A stretch of DNA of 64,000 nucleotides, from assembly GCA_000004985.1 (NCBI GenBank), contig GG738921.1; one strand, 5' to 3'. A program made the position numbers and the translations under genes. The DNA comes from Naegleria gruberi. Lineage: Eukaryota. This document shows positions 9,050 to 60,708 of this stretch, in pieces. Positions within the stretch are counted from its first letter, which is position 1. Every line of letters starts with the position of its first letter. Below the pieces are notes generated by a model, which worked only from the letters and a program-made list of their open reading frames with translations, did no database searches and had not been told where the DNA came from.

Positions 9050-9179
9050 TTTGTTTTTTAGTTTTGATTTGTTTTGGAGAATGTAAATCTCGTTTGATTA
9101 ACTATGATTTTTACATACAATAAGATTAGNNNNNNNNNNNNNNNNNNNNNNNNNNNNNNNNNNNNNNNNNNNNNNNNNN

Positions 9180-24270: not shown

Positions 24271-24434
24271 CTCTTGCTTTATTTTTTTTAAAATTCTGTT
24301 TACAAAGAATTATTTAATGAAATAATCCACTTCCAAGTACCCAAATGTTCATGACATATATAATAATGATGATGACAGGTTTAAAGTTCCCCAAAATTAT
24401 TTCCATGAACATTTGAGTACTTGGAAGTGGATTC

Positions 24435-33264: not shown

Positions 33265-33275
33265 TACTGCAATAA

Positions 33276-34063
33276 NNNNNNNNNNNNNNNNNNNNNNNNN
33301 NNNNNNNNNNNNNNNNNNNNNNNNNNNNNNNNNNNNNNNNNNNNNNNNNNNNNNNNNNNNNNNNNNNNNNNNNNNNNNNNNNNNNNNNNNNNNNNNNNNN
33401 NNNNNNNNNNNNNNNNNNNNNNNNNNNNNNNNNNNNNNNNNNNNNNNNNNNNNNNNNNNNNNNNNNNNNNNNNNNNNNNNNNNNNNNNNNNNNNNNNNNN
33501 NNNNNNNNNNNNNNNNNNNNNNNNNNNNNNNNNNNNNNNNNNNNNNNNNNNNNNNNNNNNNNNNNNNNNNNNNNNNNNNNNNNNNNNNNNNNNNNNNNNN
33601 NNNNNNNNNNNNNNNNNNNNNNNNNNNNNNNNNNNNNNNNNNNNNNNNNNNNNNNNNNNNNNNNNNNNNNNNNNNNNNNNNNNNNNNNNNNNNNNNNNNN
33701 NNNNNNNNNNNNNNNNNNNNNNNNNNNNNNNNNNNNNNNNNNNNNNNNNNNNNNNNNNNNNNNNNNNNNNNNNNNNNNNNNNNNNNNNNNNNNNNNNNNN
33801 NNNNNNNNNNNNNNNNNNNNNNNNNNNNNNNNNNNNNNNNNNNNNNNNNNNNNNNNNNNNNNNNNNNNNNNNNNNNNNNNNNNNNNNNNNNNNNNNNNNN
33901 NNNNNNNNNNNNNNNNNNNNNNNNNNNNNNNNNNNNNNNNNNNNNNNNNNNNNNNNNNNNNNNNNNNNNNNNNNNNNNNNNNNNNNNNNNNNNNNNNNNN
34001 NNNNNNNNNNNNNNNNNNNNNNNNNNNNNNNNNNNNNNNNNNNNNNNNNNNNNNNNNNNNNNN
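33276..34063. other. Assembly gap (788 N). Shorter 50-N gaps lie at 9130-9179, 16568-16617 and 56270-56319.
   Basis: Runs of n in the sequence. Each gap truncates an adjacent gene model. Confidence 1.
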
Positions 34064-42284: not shown

Positions 42285-43718
42285 TTAATCAGTTTTGGTC
42301 TTCTTTTTTGGTGGCTTGGCAGCCTTTTCATTATTGCTCACAACTTCCAGAGTGTGCACGAGAGCATTGCAAGCAGTTTCAGTAAGGATATTTCCCTCAC
42401 TATCTTTGCAGCAAAATCTTGGAACAATAGAGACCAGCTTGGAAAAGAATGGACACTTGCCATCGTCTCTCTTCTCTTCCAAAATATTGACCAGTTCTTC
42501 AGCAAGTTCTTTCTTTGGGAGGTTTCCAGATTCTTCATCTAGCTCTGCATAAACATCTTTGAGTTCCTTTAAGAGCAATTTCTTGGCGAATTCAGTAAAG
42601 AGATCATCAATGCAATTGTTTCCAAATACATCATATCTTTCAAAGGATGGAGTTGGAGCTGGTTCTTGAAGTGCCTTATAGAAACAAATGGTGCATAAAT
42701 CATAGTCATCCTTCTCTGGATCGACATAACGATAACCTCTAATTTTCTCTTTACAAGCATTGCAAGAATAGGTATCGAAATTCTCCTCTCCTATAGTTTG
42801 GAAAATGTGATCGTGTGGGTGATCGACATCTTTACAAATTGGCAAATCAGAGCCCTTTTGTTTCATGACAATCTTTTCACAACAATAGCCACACAAATCA
42901 TATTCTCCACAATCAAGACAATTGTATCTGATTCCAGTAATAGGTTCCTCACAAATGTCGCATGTGAATTCGGGCAAATCCTCTTGTTCTTCCTCTTCCT
43001 CTTCCTCAAATTCATCAATGGCTTTGACCCTTCCAATAATTCTACGTTTGAAGAATGCATTGATCAACTCTCTTTCCACATAACCATAACTATGTCTGCA
43101 CTGATTGACATTTTCAACTAGCTCATAAAATCTATCCTTAGGAAAACAATCAATATGGAAGTTATCACTAGAATCCTTGTCCCAAATATAAGTCTCCCTA
43201 TGCTCAATCTTGGCACCACACTCGGCACATTCAACACCCCAATATCCATTCTCACCTGGTGTGGAAAATGACAAATCTGTACAACCCAAATCTCTATAGT
43301 ACATTCTGACAATTTTTATCATCTTTTGTTTCCAACTAGTTTCATCTTTCACTAGGTTTAATCTAGCCTCCAAAACCTCTTTCGTCCACTTTTCCTTCTC
43401 CTTCATCACATTGAACAGCAAAGGTTCCCACAAGGCATCAGACAAGGCAAAATTTCTAAATAATTTACAAACTGGTTCGATGCTCTGAGCCAAATCGTAC
43501 TCATCCAAGAAGGATAATACCCTCAGAAAGAGAGGTTTAAATCCAATACCATCCATGATCCATTCTGGTGATTTCTCTTGAAATAAGACTCTTGATTTCG
43601 AATTATTGTTGTTCGATTGTTCCGAAGTTGTTGATTCTTGAGTGTTGTTGTTGATCGGTACGGGATCAGCGAACAAGCAGAGAAAATGATGTAATGGACG
43701 AACTTTGATGTCTTTCAT
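42285..43718 (-). CDS. Protein with an F-box-like N-terminus and two ZZ-type zinc fingers.
   Basis: 477-aa uninterrupted ORF. ZZ motifs are CDICEEPITGIRYNCLDCGEYDLCGYCC and CNACKEKIRGYRYVDPEKDDYDLCTICF. The F-box-like segment is KPLFLRVLSFLDEYDL. There is an acidic EEEEEE linker. Confidence 0.65.
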   Translation of the reverse strand: MKDIKVRPLHHFLCLFADPVPINNNTQESTTSEQSNNNNSKSRVLFQEKSPEWIMDGIGFKPLFLRVLSFLDEYDLAQSIEPVCKLFRNFALSDALWEPLLFNVMKEKEKWTKEVLEARLNLVKDETSWKQKMIKIVRMYYRDLGCTDLSFSTPGENGYWGVECAECGAKIEHRETYIWDKDSSDNFHIDCFPKDRFYELVENVNQCRHSYGYVERELINAFFKRRIIGRVKAIDEFEEEEEEEQEDLPEFTCDICEEPITGIRYNCLDCGEYDLCGYCCEKIVMKQKGSDLPICKDVDHPHDHIFQTIGEENFDTYSCNACKEKIRGYRYVDPEKDDYDLCTICFYKALQEPAPTPSFERYDVFGNNCIDDLFTEFAKKLLLKELKDVYAELDEESGNLPKKELAEELVNILEEKRDDGKCPFFSKLVSIVPRFCCKDSEGNILTETACNALVHTLEVVSNNEKAAKPPKKKTKTD

Positions 43719-43941
43719 TTTTTTTTATTAATTTTTTTTCAAAATCTGGAATTATTTATGGCGCCATACTTTACAATAACGCAAAATGTCTAAAAGAAAG
43801 AATTATGTTGCCGTAGCATGACTGTTGGCTTCATCTATAGAATTGATCATCAACTTAGTCTGATTCAGGGAGATTGGATCATTTTCATCATGTCTTGCTA
43901 ATCGATTCGAGATATGGAGGAGCTTTTCATATTATCAAGAA

Positions 43942-44014
43942 GCCGACATAGCTCAGTTGGGAGAGCGTAAGACTGAAGATCTTAAGGTCCCTGGTTCGAT
44001 CCCTGGTGTCGGCA
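43942..44014 (+). tRNA. tRNA-Phe-GAA: tRNA-Phe (anticodon GAA).
   Basis: Sequence GCCGACATAGCTCAGTTGGGAGAGCGTAAGACTGAAGATCTTAAGGTCCCTGGTTCGATCCCTGGTGTCGGCA. A textbook cloverleaf. The anticodon loop CTGAAGA gives GAA. Confidence 0.95.
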
Positions 44015-44072
44015 AATTTTAATTTTCCAATATTCCTTTCAAACATAAATCTGTCTTTTAGATTTTATTAAT

Positions 44073-44895
44073 AGAGTTCCGGCAAATGCGTATTTTGAAA
44101 ATGCGCTTTTTTAAAATGCGCATTTTTGGTACTGGTTTTTTCTGGTAGATATTGAAAGTGGGTATTTGATTAAATTTAGTCAGTGTTTTTCGGTAAATAT
44201 TGAATTTATTCACTCTTCAACAATTACATCAGAGTCAATATTGAACATGGATTTTTTTGGCATTACTATATACCTTTGGTTGAAGAAATACTGGTATTTC
44301 TATATTCATATCAATTTCCTTTACAGACTTGGTCTTGAAAGATCCTTTTTTACCTGGTGTTACCAATCCATATGATGCCAATCTATCTTCTTCATCCACA
44401 CCATGAGAATCAGTTGGCTGAGTTGAAGTGGAATTTGGATTTTGTGATTGATTTTGTGTAGGATCTGCAGAACTCGAACCAATTTGTATCTAATGAACTG
44501 GAACCAAGTTACTATCTCCATGGTAAATATTATGGAACTAAAGACAACAATGGATCAAGTTTCCGAATTCATACCAGAAAAGGAGAAAGAGTTTGCAGCT
44601 TTGGCAGAAACAAAGAAACTACAAAAGAGCTTTTTCGAATCTCTCAAAAAACCCAAACAAACGGATCAATAATTATCGAAATTAGAAAGAAACTGTTGGG
44701 AATAAATTCAATGTTTATCAATTAATTTCGAAAAATACCGATTAAACACCATGTGGTGGAACTGGTTTTGATGGGTTCAATAAATTTCGAAAAACGTCGA
44801 TTGATGGCAATCACCAACACCCACCAAAAAAAACCGGTACTGAAAATGCGCATTTTTTGAAAATGCGCTTTTTAAATGCGCATTTGCCGGAACTC
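44073..44895. mobile_element. Non-autonomous MITE-like DNA element, 823 bp, with about 75-bp terminal inverted repeats and TA flanks.
   Basis: The left TIR is 44073-44147: GAGTTCCGGCAAATGCGTATTTTGAAAATGCGCTTTTTTAAAATGCGCATTTTTGGTACTGGTTTTTT. The right TIR (44826-44895) is its reverse complement, about 90% identical, and ends CCGGAACTC. Each arm has three palindromic AAATGCGCATTT-type motifs. TA sits immediately outside both ends. There are subterminal direct repeats AATTTCGAAAAAYRYCGATTRA at 44718 and 44781. The internal ORFs are short with no transposase. Confidence 0.6.
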
Positions 44896-44969
44896 TAATG
44901 TAAAGATAGTTTCAAATTTGCTACAATGAGCGTTTCAGCGATCACACATCAAAACACAATCCATTAAAC

Positions 44970-45773
44970 ATGCTCAAAACGGTACAACCACGGCTAAAAG
45001 AACGAAAAAAAATGTCGCTATTTACACTCCTGCTTGCCATTTGTTTATGTGGCTTGATTTATGCCATGCCACATGTCAATGCCACGGCTAGTCAATGCAC
45101 CAGACCATTTAACACATACAGTTCAAGTGCCAAGAGAAGTACAGCTGCAGCAGTTGCTCTTTCTAAAACATTCGATTTTTCACAAGATATTTTAGCTGCA
45201 CAAACAGCTGTCAACCAAGAATCTGATGTTTCGACATTGGCAGCTACAAGCTTATTTTCCTTCGGTAAGCTTTCTGCAAAAGCCAAACAAAATGTGAAAA
45301 TGGCACCAAAACATTTCACTGGTAAAACTGGACCATTATTCGCCAAGATTCAGAATCGTATAATGGAATTCACTGGATTGGACGAAACTGCATGTGTTGC
45401 ATGTCGATTGAATTGTCTAGATGCCATTCCTACCTTTGGAACTATCTTTAGCGAATGTGAAAATCAATTCTATTATTATGGATGTCAAAAAGTAGCTCCA
45501 TGTCATTCCATGTCAGATGGCAATGTCGTATTGGAAACTGCTGTTGGTATTTGTTTGGAAAGAAATAAGTGTAAATTGGTAGATTCATTGGTAGATTTGC
45601 AAAATACTAGAAGAAGAATTGGATTTGCTAGGAGACGAATGGTTTCGCCAACAATAGACGAAATTAAGAAGGGAGTTGTTTCAAGAGTTGGACAATATAT
45701 TGATAATTATAATAGAAAACCATTTTCTTTTGGTAAAAAGAGAGGTTTGTTTGGAGGTAGAGGTAGAAATTAA
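44970..45773 (+). CDS. Hypothetical secreted Cys-containing protein (probable start at ATG 45012).
   Basis: 267-aa ORF with a signal-peptide-like segment MSLFTLLLAICLCGLIYA and about 10 Cys. No recognisable domain. Confidence 0.45.
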   Translation: MLKTVQPRLKERKKMSLFTLLLAICLCGLIYAMPHVNATASQCTRPFNTYSSSAKRSTAAAVALSKTFDFSQDILAAQTAVNQESDVSTLAATSLFSFGKLSAKAKQNVKMAPKHFTGKTGPLFAKIQNRIMEFTGLDETACVACRLNCLDAIPTFGTIFSECENQFYYYGCQKVAPCHSMSDGNVVLETAVGICLERNKCKLVDSLVDLQNTRRRIGFARRRMVSPTIDEIKKGVVSRVGQYIDNYNRKPFSFGKKRGLFGGRGRN

Positions 45774-45993
45774 ATCTTGTTGAGATTCTAATAAAGTTTA
45801 GTTTTTTCTTTCGTTTTATATAATAAACATTTTCCCGCCATTTATAACATACAGTAACAACAGTAAGTTCGAAGTTTAAAAAATAAGCAAAAATAAAAAA
45901 TTGTTTTCTTAATCCAAAAAAAAAGCGTGGTCTAAAATATCATCACGAATATTAATTTTTTATTTTTCAATATTTTATACATATATTAGAGAG

Positions 45994-48449: not shown

Positions 48450-50040
48450 ATATTACAATTCCATTAGAAACATGTGTTTATTCTACCACGTAAAAACTTC
48501 CTTATGGAGATGGAATCTAATTCCATTTCTTTCATTTGCATCCCAAATGGCATTCGAAACTGAAGTTACCAATTGTTCTGGACCACAAACTAAAACACCA
48601 ACATATGCATTCAATTCTCCTCTTTCTTTCATTTCCTTTTTCACTTGTTCCAAGAATTGTTTTGGATTGGCTCTTCCTTTATGAATAAATGCTGTTTGTT
48701 GTGAATTTTCTTCTTTCATTTTGGAAATGAAAATATTTGGTTTTAAATTCTTATTTCCATTCGTTTCCAAGAGTTGAGGAAATACTTGAATCATATCAGT
48801 GGTTGGAATTGACCAACAAGTATAAACAGTCTTATCTTGAATATTCTTTTCCAACAAGTGTGAATAAATTGAATGAACTGGTGTAATACCAATTCCACCA
48901 CCAAACATGACAATTGTCTTGTATCTCAATAATGGAACTGATAATGATCCATAAGCACCTTCAACTCTACAAATTAATTCATTGGCTGATTGAGCCTTCT
49001 CTTGAGCAATTTTTGCAACTTGTTTTGACCATCCACTTCCAAAATTCTTTACATGAACTGTAAATTCTAATTCCTTCTTTTTAATCATTCCACCATCAAT
49101 TTCCTTACAACTACTAACTGTGATTGGATGGTGTTGATATTTTGAAACAGCAGGAATGTATAAGAATATGAAATGTCCCATTGAAGGATTACTGCCAAAT
49201 GTCAAGAATGGTTTTCTCATTGTAATGGTTGTAACTTGACTCTTTTCATCATATTTGATTGAATCAATTTTGGTTGGAATACCAAATCCAAATACCACTC
49301 TCAAAAATACATCAAACAGATATAATAAAATTGATAATGCCATATAAGGTAATAAATTAATATATCCAGAACCATGAATAATTGATAAAATGACAATTAA
49401 AATGGACAAGATGACATGTGAAATTAAAAAGACCTCCCATAGCTTTCTTCTTATGACTGGGAATGTCATTAACCAAAGAATAGTCATGAAAAACCATGCA
49501 ATAATTCCCAAAATTGGAAATGTTGGAGATGTCACATCAACTAAATATAATCCAGATGCATTATAATGAACAACCATTGCAATTCCATGAGCAGTTACAA
49601 AAAACCATTGTAAAATACCCAACCATCTGTGATATTTAATTGCTCTATCAAATGAAATTCCAAATAAAACTTGTAAAACTGAATATCTCGTGACTGGAAA
49701 TAAAATTAATCCAAAATTGAAAACACAAACAGAAGCAAATGCTTTTCCAGCTTCAGCTGATGTTGCATTCACATATCCAAATGCAAACCAAATGGCCACA
49801 AGAATCCAATAACATGAAATTACAACAGCTTCACCCAAAGTTAAATCTAAAATGGTATTAATGTAAATTCCAATAAATTTCAAATTGACTTGTTTGGTCA
49901 ATCTTCTGTACAAGATCAAATCAAGGAATAGATTTGGATTCACTCTTGGTCCAATCACACTCAATAAGAATCCACCAATAACCAACAATCCACAAATGAA
50001 TGCAGTAGCAATCAAATGCCATCTGTAGGAATTGGCAAGT
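48450..50040. repeat. Inverted-repeat arm (partner 59150-60740). Near-identical 1.6-kb 3' portions of the two DOMON-ferric-reductase paralogs.
   Basis: The encoded C-terminal about 530 aa are identical except GIPTK/GVPTK, KIAQEK/KVAQEK, EKNIQDK/EKNVQDK and KMKEEN/KMKDEN. Identity continues about 30 bp past the stop codons and then ends abruptly. Upstream of about 50030 and 59160 the copies are only about 70-80% identical. Confidence 0.85.
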
Positions 50041-51576
50041 TTGGTCAATGAGTTCATTGAGATACTTCCATCCTTAATGTTGCCAGTAGAAGAACCACAT
50101 GTGGCCAATTCACTGCCAGGAGGAGCTGCCAAGTGTGCCAAAGTAGCTGTTTGTAAAAAGTTAATCATGACATTTTTGCCTCTGTAATTGTGGACATATT
50201 CCATGGATGTAGATGTTTTGGCTATAGCCCAAGAAATTGAAATTTGTGCATTTGTAAATAAGTGATCCAATGAATCCTTAGTATTGACCAAACGTGTCCA
50301 TTTCAAATGAAGTTCATAATTTCCACTCACAGATCTTAATCCTCCATTTTTGGAAATGAAATCTTGAGATGAATCTAATGTTGGTGCTTGAAGATTACCT
50401 TGCATGTATGTGTCTAATATAACTGGGTTTCCACTTGAATCCACATATCCAAACATTGTATCAGCAGTGTCCATTCCAGAGTTGGTTCCATGATTAAATC
50501 CAATTGATGCATAGCCATAAATTCCTGTGGCAATCAATCCAAATTCAATAATTGGTACATTTGCATCATTTGGATTTGTTAAAACTTTCCAATACAATTT
50601 CAAAGAATCAGAAGTTCCATAATTAGCAACTAACTTGTAATTAGCTGTAGGATAATCAGCAGAGTTGACCCACTGAGTTAAAATACTTTGTGAATATCCA
50701 GTTTGAAGTGAACAGGTCGAATTACTACTACTAGAACCTCCATCCGAAACTACTGGTTGACTTGGCAATACTCCATACTCACCAGTAGCATAACCAGCTG
50801 AAAGGAAATTCAAACTTGGACCTTTGCCAGTGCTGGTATGTCTAACCATTCCAGTACTGGTGGAGTGGAGTGCCCAGGAAGTTTTCATGACTGCATTGGT
50901 GAAAATGACATCGTGGGAATCTCCTGTTTTAACGAAACGTGTCCACTTGATATGTGTCTCACCTGTGGCCGAGTTGTATCCACCATTTCTTTGAAGGATA
51001 TCATCGGAAGCATCACTCACTGGTGATTGTGGCTTTGCAACCATCCATGCATCCATGATGGTTACACTTTGAGAAGCACTATTATAATACCCGAAAACTT
51101 TATCAATTCATCATCATTAATAATATTAAGTTAATATTGCCAATAACAACTTACTGGTATCACCCTTCATTGGATCTCCATTTAAATAACCAAAGCAAAA
51201 CGAGACGTAACCTCTCGTGTTTTTGGCCACAGCTCCAAATTCCAAGATTGCATCATTAATATCAGAGCTTTTTTCATTCCTTAATAATTTCCAATATAGC
51301 TTGAGATTGGAACTGAATGTGGCCACATTTCCCGATGGATAATCAGTGGAAGATACAAACTGAGTATTCATACTCTGACTGTATACAATAGTTGCCTTAC
51401 GTTCCGAACCTTTTATTCTTCTAGTTGTATTATAATTATTATAAGTATCTAATATTTTATAATGATGATGATGAAACTCTTGAAAGCAACAACAACATCA
51501 TCATCATCGTCAATACAATAATCAAACTCCTTAGCCATTGACTCGAAATTAAATGATGATTCTTTGATAACGCCAT
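48483..51576 (-). CDS. Ferric-reductase/NOX-like transmembrane oxidoreductase with two N-terminal DOMON domains (copy A). Exons 48483..51097 and 51155..51371, plus a 5' signal region up to ATG 51576 that is out of frame.
   Basis: Intron 51098-51154 (GTAAGT..GATAAAG). DOMON-like repeats x2. A 6-TM ferric-reductase core with His pairs. FAD motif HPITVSS and NADPH motif GGGIGITP. The N-terminal exon MALSKNHHLISSQWLRSLIIVLTMMMMLLLL.. stops in a (TCA)4 run before reaching the DOMON frame. Confidence 0.75.
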
Positions 51577-57719: not shown

Positions 57720-60708
57720 ATGGCGTTTTATGTTATTCGAAACTCGCAGCTCTTTCTTCTGTCTGCACTCTTGTTGGTAACAGTTTTAGCATGTCATGAC
57801 CCAGCACATGCAGCAAACGTTACCTATAGCCAAAGTATTGAAACTCAATTCGTAAATCCCTCTGATTATCCAGCAACAAACGTTGCCTCTTTCGGTTCGA
57901 ATCTGAAACTTTATTGGAAACTCTTAAAAAACGAAAAGAGTTCAGATATTAATAATGCCATTCTAGAATTTGGTGCTGTTGCTCTTCGTACTAAAGGTTA
58001 CCTTTCCTTTTGTTTTGGTTATTTAAGTGGAGATCCAATGAAGGGAGATACCAGTAAGTTATTTTTTTATTCGAAAGTTCTAAAGCATTAATATTCAATC
58101 TAAAGTCTTTGGTTTCTTCAATCAAGCTTCAGGTAGCATCACTGTTATGGACGCTTGGATGACTAACAAACCTGCACCACCAACCAGTGATCCCTCTGAT
58201 GATATCATCCAGAAGAATGGAGGGTTTCGAACAGTTAATGGAATATCCGAAACTCACATGAAATGGACACGTTTCGTCAAGACCAACGATACTAGAGATG
58301 TTGTATTTACTAACACTGCCATGAGAATGTCCTGGGCTATTCACTCAACTAGTACTTCAATGGTGGAACATACCAGTCAAGGAAGTGGCACAACTGTTAA
58401 CTTTCTTTCGGCTGGATTCGTAACTGGTGAATATGGAAAGCTTCCACAACCACCAGTGATTGCAACAGGAGGTGGAAATAACTGTTCACTTCCAACTGGA
58501 TATTCACAAAGTATTTTAACTCAGTGGGTCAATTCTGCTGATTATCCTGCAGCTAATTACAAGTTAGTTGCTAATTATGGAACATCTGATTCTTTGAAAT
58601 TGTATTGGAAAGTTTTGACCAATCCAAATGATGCCAATAATCCAATTATTGAATTTGGATTGTTGGCTACAGGTATTTATGGTTATGCTTCACTTGGTTT
58701 CAATCATGGAGCTAGTTCAGGAATGCAAACTGCTGATACCATGTTTGGTTATGTAGATTCAACTGGTAAGGCAGTGATTATTGATGCTTACATGCAAGGA
58801 AATTTGCAAGCACCAGCTCCAGACACCACTCAAAATTTTATTTCAAGCAATGGTGGTTTGAGATCTGTCAATGGCAATTATGAACTCCATTTGAAATGGA
58901 CACGTTTGGTAAATACTAAGGACGCTATGGATTATACATTCAGCAATGCACAAATTCCAATTTCATGGGCTCTTTCCAAAACTTCTACTTCCATTACTTC
59001 TGTTCACAGTTACAGAGACAAGAATGTCATGATTAATTTCATGCAAAATGGAGCTTCCACTGAAATGGCAGCTCCTCCTGGCAGTAGTTTGGCATGTGGA
59101 TCAAGTAGTGGTTCACAAACTGGAACTGTTGTCATTGATGAAGGTTTGAAATTAGCAAATTCCTACAGATGGCATTTGATTGCTACTGCATTCATTTGTG
59201 GATTGTTGGTCATTGGTGGATTCTTATTGAGTGTGATTGGACCAAGAGTGAATCCAAATCTATTCCTTGATTTGATCTTGTACAGAAGATTGACAAAACA
59301 AGTCAATTTGAAATTTATTGGAATTTACATTAATACCATTTTAGATTTAACATTGGGTGAAGCTGTTGTAATTTCATGTTATTGGATTCTTGTGGCCATT
59401 TGGTTTGCATTTGGATATGTGAATGCAACATCAGCAGAAGCTGGAAAAGCATTTGCCTCTGTTTGTGTTTTCAATTTTGGATTAATTTTATTTCCAGTCA
59501 CAAGATATTCAGTTTTACAAGTTTTATTTGGAATTTCATTTGATAGAGCAATTAAATATCACAGATGGTTGGGTATTTTACAATGGTTTTTTGTAACTGC
59601 TCATGGAATTGCAATGGTTGTTCATTATAATGCATCTGGATTATATTTAGTTGATGTGACATCTCCAACATTTCCAATTTTGGGAATTATTGCATGGTTT
59701 TTCATGACTATACTTTGGTTAATGACATTCCCAGTCATAAGAAGAAAGTTGTGGGAAGTCTTTTTAATTTCACATGTCATCTTATCCATTTTAATTGTCA
59801 TTTTATCAATTATTCATGGTTCTGGATATATTAATTTATTACCTTATATGGCATTATCAATTTTATTATATCTATTTGATGTATTTTTGAGAGTGGTATT
59901 TGGATTTGGTGTTCCAACCAAAATTGATTCAATCAAATATGATGAAAAGAGTCAAGTTACAACCATTACAATGAGAAAACCATTCCTAACATTTGGTAGT
60001 AATCCTTCAATGGGACATTTCATATTCTTATATATTCCTGCTGTTTCAAAATATCAACACCATCCAATCACAGTTAGTAGTTGTAAGGAAATTGATGGTG
60101 GAATGATTAAAAAGAAGGAATTGGAATTTACAGTTCATGTCAAGAATTTTGGAAGTGGATGGTCAAAACAAGTTGCAAAAGTTGCTCAAGAGAAGGCTCA
60201 ATCAGCCAATGAATTAATTTGTAGAGTTGAAGGTGCTTATGGATCATTATCAGTTCCATTATTGAGATACAAGACAATTGTCATGTTTGGTGGTGGAATT
60301 GGTATTACACCAGTTCATTCAATTTATTCACACTTGTTGGAAAAGAATGTTCAAGATAAGACTGTTTATACTTGTTGGTCAATTCCAACCACTGATATGA
60401 TTCAAGTATTTCCTCAACTTTTGGAAACGAATGGAAATAAGAATTTGAAACCAAATATTTTCATTTCCAAAATGAAGGATGAGAATTCACAACAAACAGC
60501 ATTCATTCATAAAGGAAGAGCCAATCCAAAACAATTCTTGGAACAAGTGAAAAAGGAAATGAAAGAAAGAGGAGAATTGAATGCATATGTTGGTGTTTTA
60601 GTTTGTGGTCCAGAACAATTGGTAACTTCAGTTTCGAATGCCATTTGGGATGCAAATGAAAGAAATGGAATTAGATTCCATCTCCATAAGGAAGTTTTTA
60701 CGTGGTAG
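57720..60708 (+). CDS. Ferric-reductase/NOX-like transmembrane oxidoreductase with two N-terminal DOMON domains (copy B). Exons 57720..58053 and 58133..60708.
   Basis: Signal peptide MAFYVIRNSQLFLLSALLLVTVLACHDPAHA. Intron 58054-58132 (GTAAGT..GCTTCAG). The domain order matches copy A. The C-terminal about 530 aa differ from copy A at only 4 residues. Confidence 0.85.

Follow-up and report, generated by a model that had tools for sequence, protein, structure and literature searches.

Genes and features of the locus

The DNA analysed here is a stretch of 64 kb (referred to below as the window) from the amoeboflagellate Naegleria gruberi NEG-M (Heterolobosea), and four uninterrupted open reading frames (ORFs) of the window match annotated proteins of this strain exactly, among them EFC37201 (NAEGRDRAFT_59833) and EFC37162, which both come from one scaffold of 207,235 bp. 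The window is gene-dense, with a GC content of ~35%, and contains assembly gaps. Runs of N are present at ~33270-34060 and, as short ones, near 9100 and 16570, in or beside predicted ORFs, and a GC trough of 21% at 32-34 kb is partly due to the gap.

A tRNA-Phe(GAA) gene (43942-44014, plus strand) was found by ARAGORN and by Rfam (RF00005, 67.9 bits) and is followed by a TTTT Pol III terminator at 44018-44021. Upstream of it lies the divergent gene NAEGRDRAFT_59833 (42285-43718, minus strand), which codes for a ZZ-type zinc finger protein, and downstream lies NAEGRDRAFT_59834 (44970-45773, plus strand), whose product of 267 amino acids has a signal-peptide-like N-terminal segment. The tRNA gene and NAEGRDRAFT_59834 are separated by a non-coding segment of 824 bp (44073-44896, 34% GC) that is bounded by inverted repeats. 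It begins 58 nt downstream of the tRNA gene, the same spacing as in an earlier reading that was made from the letters alone (the sequence-only reading), and the ATG of NAEGRDRAFT_59834 follows 73 nt past its end.

Two other features of the window were recorded in passing. A pair of ferric-reductase-like paralogues, at 48483-51056 on the minus strand and 58147-60708 on the plus strand, is arranged in inverted orientation with ~7 kb between the genes; the two are 88% identical overall, with ~99% identity in the C-terminal ~515 residues and only ~70% in the N-terminal ~340 residues, a pattern that suggests a recent gene conversion across the 3′ halves. Further away, a near-perfect hairpin at 24324-24433 (30-nt arms, 97% complementary, with a loop of 50 nt) occupies the short intergenic region upstream of a minus-strand gene of 836 amino acids, and could represent a very small insertion of the foldback or MITE-like type, or else a palindrome with a regulatory role.

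Terminal inverted repeats and subterminal repeats

A repeat finder, an alignment of the arms and BLAST were used to delimit the terminal inverted repeats (TIRs), which are ~82 nt long and lie at 44073-44154 (left, plus strand) and 44815-44896 (right, minus strand). The left one starts with 5′-AGAGTTCCGGCAAATGCG, and the right one has the same 18-nt terminus. The sequence-only reading had already recognized the inverted pair and the non-coding segment between its members, with TIRs of ~75 bp (at 44073-44147 and 44826-44895), but had ended the element one base early (44073-44895, 823 bp). When the arms are taken with one extra base each (44072-44154 and 44815-44897), the resulting 83 nt reach a complementarity of 80% in an ungapped and of 82-86% in a gapped comparison. 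They match each other with a BLAST E value of 2.8e-17 within the 64-kb window, which has no stronger inverted repeat and, within 6 kb, none that comes near theirs in length. The outermost 19 nt of these 83-nt arms, TAGAGTTCCGGCAAATGCG, are identical, which corresponds to 18 nt when counted from the tips of the element. The element thus ends with 5′-AG...CT-3′, its outermost letters being AGAGTTCC on the left and GGAACTCT on the right.

Each arm carries an array of three short motifs. On the left, AAATGCG(C/T)(A/T)TTT is repeated with a spacing of 15 nt (at 44084, 44099 and 44114, together 44084-44125), and the third copy alone is a perfect palindrome; on the right, AAATGCGC(A/T)TTT begins at 44844, 44861 and 44874 (together 44844-44885), with perfect palindromes in first and third place. 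The arrays therefore agree with the earlier description of three perfect palindromes in each TIR, except that perfection holds for three of the six copies, one on the left and two on the right. With at most one mismatch allowed, the motif AAATGCGCATTT has six matches in the window, split evenly between the arms with none outside them, where 0.34 would be expected, and none of 100 shuffled sequences reached six. A scan of the whole window likewise placed the motif cores ATGCGCAT and AAATGCGC in the arms exclusively.

Inside the TIRs, each end has direct repeats of its own. On the left, a repeat finder and a pattern scan revealed three copies of GTNNATATTGAA (plus strand; at 44145, 44193 and 44234, spanning 44145-44245), which are the only exact matches to it in the 64 kb. 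On the right, the repeat finder gave two copies of TCAAT(T/A)AATTTCGAAAAANNNCGATT (plus strand; 44718-44743 and 44777-44802, spanning 44718-44802) with 85% identity, as the sequence-only reading had described for this end. A stable hairpin can form in each arm (z = -3.8 and -4.1), and it may be speculated that, if transcribed together, the two TIRs could pair as a stem of ~80 bp. The search of Rfam returned the tRNA as its sole match, the weak hits in the arms being below the threshold and regarded as noise. A scan of the element for bacterial promoters and terminators, which is not meaningful in a eukaryote, returned nothing except the palindromes.

Coding capacity

The longest stop-free stretch in the element has 87 codons, and the element has no match in Pfam. 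A homologue search with an internal ORF of 84 amino acids, the longest on the minus strand, came back empty. When every stop-free segment of 22 or more amino acids from the six frames was joined into one query, nothing was found at E ≤ 10 among 5.8 billion protein clusters. Six ORFs of the element were also looked up as exact sequences in the protein collection, where none was present. In a test of ORF length, the longest ORF was unremarkable (32% of shuffles) and the third-longest mildly long (0.4%), which was not counted as evidence for coding. The earlier statement that the interval has no meaningful ORF is thus borne out, and since there is no coding capacity in any frame, the element is non-autonomous. 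Its internal region was also compared by blastn and tblastx with the rest of the window, and showed no similarity that would identify it as captured host sequence.

An empty site in a close relative

The 90% cluster of the NAEGRDRAFT_59834 protein contains a second member, derived from an ENA metagenome, and this led to a contig of 2,353 bp (ERZ929261, run ERR1078381; here called L007) from a close Naegleria relative. Its homologue of NAEGRDRAFT_59834 has 97% amino acid identity across all 267 residues. The contig also has a tRNA-Phe(GAA) gene, at 1080-1152, and the start codon of the homologue is found 182 nt further on. In a blastn comparison, positions 1074-1164 of L007 correspond to 43936-44026 of the window (98.9%), 1235-1265 to 44040-44070, and 1264-2353 to 44896-45968 (95.7% over 1,099 nt), and for 44071-44895 of the window L007 has no counterpart. 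After the tRNA gene the contig reads cttttagattttattATTgtaaagat and continues straight into the downstream gene.

At the level of single bases, the junction is gattttatt-AAT-AGAGTTCC ... GGAACTCT-AAT-gtaaagat in the window and gattttatt-ATT-gtaaagat in L007. When 44073-44899 (the element plus one AAT) is taken out of the window, the remainder and L007 align through the junction with a single substitution and no gaps; the empty site has ATT where NEG-M has AAT. Both breakpoints fall on the tips of the inverted repeats, and the trinucleotide occurs twice in the filled allele and once in the empty one. Breakpoints exactly at the tips together with a duplicated trinucleotide are the signature of a transposase-mediated insertion or, if the polarity is reversed, of a precise excision. 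The sequence-only reading had proposed that an empty site be sought in a related strain or species, and had regarded conservation of the interval at orthologous loci as the mark of a locus-specific regulatory structure; L007 lacks the whole 824 bp, that is, exactly 44073-44896 plus 3 nt. Because a close relative has the homologous empty site, the segment is to be seen as a mobile insertion.

Presence in one genome and absence in the other leave the event unpolarised, and the segment might instead be ancestral and have been lost in the lineage of L007 through a deletion between short direct repeats in which no transposase took part, all the more as a microhomology of 3-4 nt (TAAT/TATT) is present on both sides of it. 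However, a random microhomology event would hardly have both its breakpoints at the outer ends of a pair of 82-nt inverted repeats, and a loss that is precise to the tips is the way a transposase excises its element, which would then still be mobile. Such a deletion is a most improbable account of the data.

The homology between L007 and the window ends ~6 nt 5′ of the tRNA gene (L007 1-1079 versus window 43719-43935), where L007 carries, in place of the divergent ZZ-finger gene of NEG-M, the final (3′) portion of a gene resembling arrestin (weak Pfam matches to Arrestin_N/C). This exchange puts a rearrangement breakpoint next to the tRNA gene, and on account of it the L007 locus may be an orthologue that has been rearranged or else a paralogue; in both cases it is a valid empty site. 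The corresponding loci in N. fowleri and in a metagenomic relative with 50% identity had no synteny and no tRNA gene nearby; the former is too diverged, and neither was informative as an empty-site test.

Two further observations were made in this comparison. From tRNA-Phe to the insertion point (L007 1165-1234 versus window 44027-44039), the spacer has three indels of 17, 14 and 26 nt, each of them longer in L007, in contrast to the ~96% identity of the adjacent coding sequence; intergenic DNA turns over fast in this lineage. A short upstream ORF, MSVSAITHQNTIH followed by a stop, is situated at 44928-44969, past the right TIR and ahead of the annotated start codon of NAEGRDRAFT_59834. L007 has every base of it unchanged, so that it may belong to a conserved 5′ leader of this gene.

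Length of the target-site duplication

The filled allele is longer than the empty allele by 827 nt, which equals the element plus 3-4 nt. An enumeration of the possible target-site duplications (TSDs) showed that, with the ends of the TIRs kept symmetric, no perfect duplication of 3 nt or more is available except AAT. Its copies, identified by the TSD scan and the alignment to the empty site, are at 44070-44072 on the left and 44897-44899 on the right. A duplication of 4 nt, TAAT, also fits if the ends are offset by one base; TAA requires an offset of 2 nt (TAGAG...CTC), and for TA the two ends would have to be unequal by 3 nt (ATAGAG...CTC). The TSD is therefore 3 bp long and reads AAT, a 4-bp TAAT being compatible as well. 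The AAT version had been mentioned by the sequence-only reading as its second choice, and it is this one that matches the empty site of L007 exactly.

The choice preferred in that reading was a TA duplication, as would be made by a Stowaway-like or Tc1/mariner-derived MITE. TA does stand directly outside GAGTTCC...GGAACTC at both ends, and Tc1/mariner (ITm) elements are known to generate TA duplications (PMC10045372). However, an element of the form TA|GAG...CTC|TA should leave an empty site of 21 nt, GATTTTATTAA-TA-ATGTAAAG, and the site actually present in L007 has 18 nt, GATTTTATTATTGTAAAG. As TA is self-complementary, it may equally be taken to lengthen the inverted repeat by 2 nt, and each of the flanking TA dinucleotides consists of one terminal base of the TSD and the terminal A or T of the TIR. 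The termini differ too, those of Tc1 and Stowaway being typically CAGT or CTCCCTCC and those of the present element AGAGTTCCGG. A TA-duplicating origin is thus very unlikely.

It is scarcely credible that the element belongs to the hAT, Mutator-like or Kolobok groups and that a longer or otherwise different TSD has decayed. In favour of such a membership one may point to the sequence TAGAG, which resembles hAT termini, to the long TIRs beginning with GAG as in MULEs, and to the combination of long TIRs with subterminal repeats. The TSDs of hAT elements have 8 bp and those of MULEs 9-10 bp. Flanks of 8, 9 and 10 nt were compared here and matched at chance level (2/8 and 4-5/9), and the empty site sets the duplication at 3-4 nt, whatever decay may have followed, so that a hAT or MULE duplication was rejected. 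Kolobok, which has been reported in Naegleria, has 5′-RR...YY-3′ ends and a TTAA-specific TSD of 4 bp (PMC9587614). The 5′-AG...CT-3′ ends of the element fit this pattern and the genus is the same, but a duplication of the Kolobok or piggyBac type was ruled out, as TTAA is lacking at the right flank (TAATG or CTAAT) and in the empty site of L007 (TTATTG).

A non-autonomous cut-and-paste element

The segment at 44073-44896 between tRNA-Phe and NAEGRDRAFT_59834 of NEG-M is very probably a non-autonomous class II element of the cut-and-paste, TIR type. The DNA-type TIR element that the sequence-only reading had seen at this place is thereby confirmed in its TIRs, its TSD, its empty site and its lack of coding capacity. 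The opposite idea, that of an immobile regulatory structure of palindromes, or of a local duplication in inverted orientation, peculiar to the region between tRNA-Phe and NAEGRDRAFT_59834, has next to no probability, for although the segment is single in the window, is situated 73 nt upstream of a gene start, forms a hairpin with each arm and has palindromic motifs that could be transcription-factor sites, the motif is missing from every other intergenic region of the 64 kb, and L007 keeps the tRNA gene, the flanks and the protein gene at 96-99% but is without the 824 bp, with its breakpoints at the tips of the TIRs.

A DDE-type transposase, encoded elsewhere, would mobilise the element in trans. 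This enzyme would presumably bind the half-palindromes AAATGCGCATTT, of which each end offers three at a spacing of ~15 nt, and perhaps also the subterminal repeats specific for each end; it would then cut the element out at the tips of the TIRs and, after cutting the target with a 3-nt stagger, integrate it in such a manner that AAT is duplicated. Between the filled and the empty allele the flanks have diverged by ~4%, whereas the two TIRs differ from each other by 14-20%, and for this reason the mismatches between the TIRs were probably inherited from the source copy and did not arise by decay after the insertion. As an alternative, the insertion could be older and could have been lost from the relative by precise excision.

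No second copy or fragment of the cut-and-paste element was found in the 64 kb. The two other tRNA genes of the window are without a copy, and the single insertion beside tRNA-Phe is no evidence of targeting. Searches of wider collections with the pattern of the TIR terminus gave no match in viral contigs, two in JGI metagenomes, both in GC-rich bacterial contigs and attributable to chance, and one chance match in GTDB prokaryote genomes (Glutamicibacter); the pattern of the motif array also had no match in viral contigs. These results hint weakly that the family is not abundant in the Naegleria DNA that was sampled, and have little bearing on NEG-M itself.

No description of MITEs in Naegleria was found in the literature. 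One might imagine that the element stands for an uncharacterised family of DNA transposons of the Heterolobosea, possibly outside the named superfamilies, with TIR arrays of a palindromic 12-mer as transposase-binding sites, with recent mobility and polymorphism within the N. gruberi complex, and with a preference for the downstream flank of tRNA genes, but this whole picture is unlikely to be correct. As a kind of feature, the segment is otherwise ordinary, a real insertion of a non-autonomous DNA transposon of the TIR type, flanked by a TSD of 3 bp. If the picture of a new family that prefers tRNA flanks were true, it would offer a lead towards a genetic tool built on a transposon, the first one for Naegleria, and would show that a cut-and-paste element of a deep-branching eukaryote can target sites close to Pol III genes.

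The transposable elements of Naegleria are poorly catalogued, and according to a methylome study only a small fraction of the repeats of N. gruberi can be classified (PMC12344493). An element with exact ends, a 3-bp TSD and a natural empty allele therefore provides a clean seed for the definition of a family, for the search for its transposase and for the question of activity. The insertion also splits the upstream region of NAEGRDRAFT_59834, parting the gene from the spacer of ~58-110 nt that adjoins it in the empty allele, and it may be speculated that the promoter of this gene was changed in this way. With its position beside a tRNA gene and 73 nt before a gene start, the element constitutes a natural test of the effect of a TIR insertion on a compact protist promoter.

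Comparison with known elements

The position of the element had led the sequence-only reading to a comparison with the mobile elements of dictyostelids. The TRE and DGLT-A elements of these Amoebozoa are retroelements that target Pol III genes through TFIIIB/C. The likeness consists in the location within ~60 nt downstream of a tRNA gene; the host here is the heterolobosean Naegleria gruberi, in contrast, and the element is of the DNA type, with the structure of TIRs and TSD, so that the comparison does not hold.

Among DNA transposons, TSDs of 3 bp are made by Zator, of 3-4 bp by AcademX and of 0-4 bp by the PHIS group (Harbinger, ISL2EU and relatives) (PMC10045372), and the TSD found here, 3 bp with 4 also compatible, falls within the range of PHIS. 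Zator and AcademX are alike to the element in the length of the TSD alone. The CACTA elements also have a 3-bp TSD. For CACTA/EnSpm (CMC) the length accordingly fits, but the termini do not, being AGAGT and not CACTA. Stowaway and Tc1/mariner share with the element the non-autonomous TIR structure, the AT-rich intergenic site and the TA that abuts a GAG...CTC core, and differ from it in that they duplicate 2 nt and not the 3-4 nt seen in the empty site. The 3-bp TSD thus argues against Tc1/mariner and points towards PHIS/PIF-Harbinger (“Tourist-like”), Zator, AcademX or CMC.

The canonical PIF/Harbinger target is TWA (TAA or TTA), and the mobilisation of these elements depends on two proteins, a DDE_Tnp_4 transposase and one of the Myb-like type. 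The resemblance to Tourist-like MITEs and to non-autonomous PIF-Harbinger elements such as mPing is found in the short non-coding TIR structure, the 3-bp TSD, the precise empty site, which is consistent with a clean insertion or excision, and the insertion near the 5′ end of a gene. The differences are that the duplication with symmetric ends is AAT and not TAA or TTA, that the TIRs, in which a palindromic motif is repeated three times, have ~82 nt, versus ~15 nt in Tourist and mPing, and that the 824 bp are at or just above the usual size limit of MITEs (~800 bp). “Tourist-like” is a better analogy for the element than “Stowaway-like”, even though AAT is not a canonical TWA.
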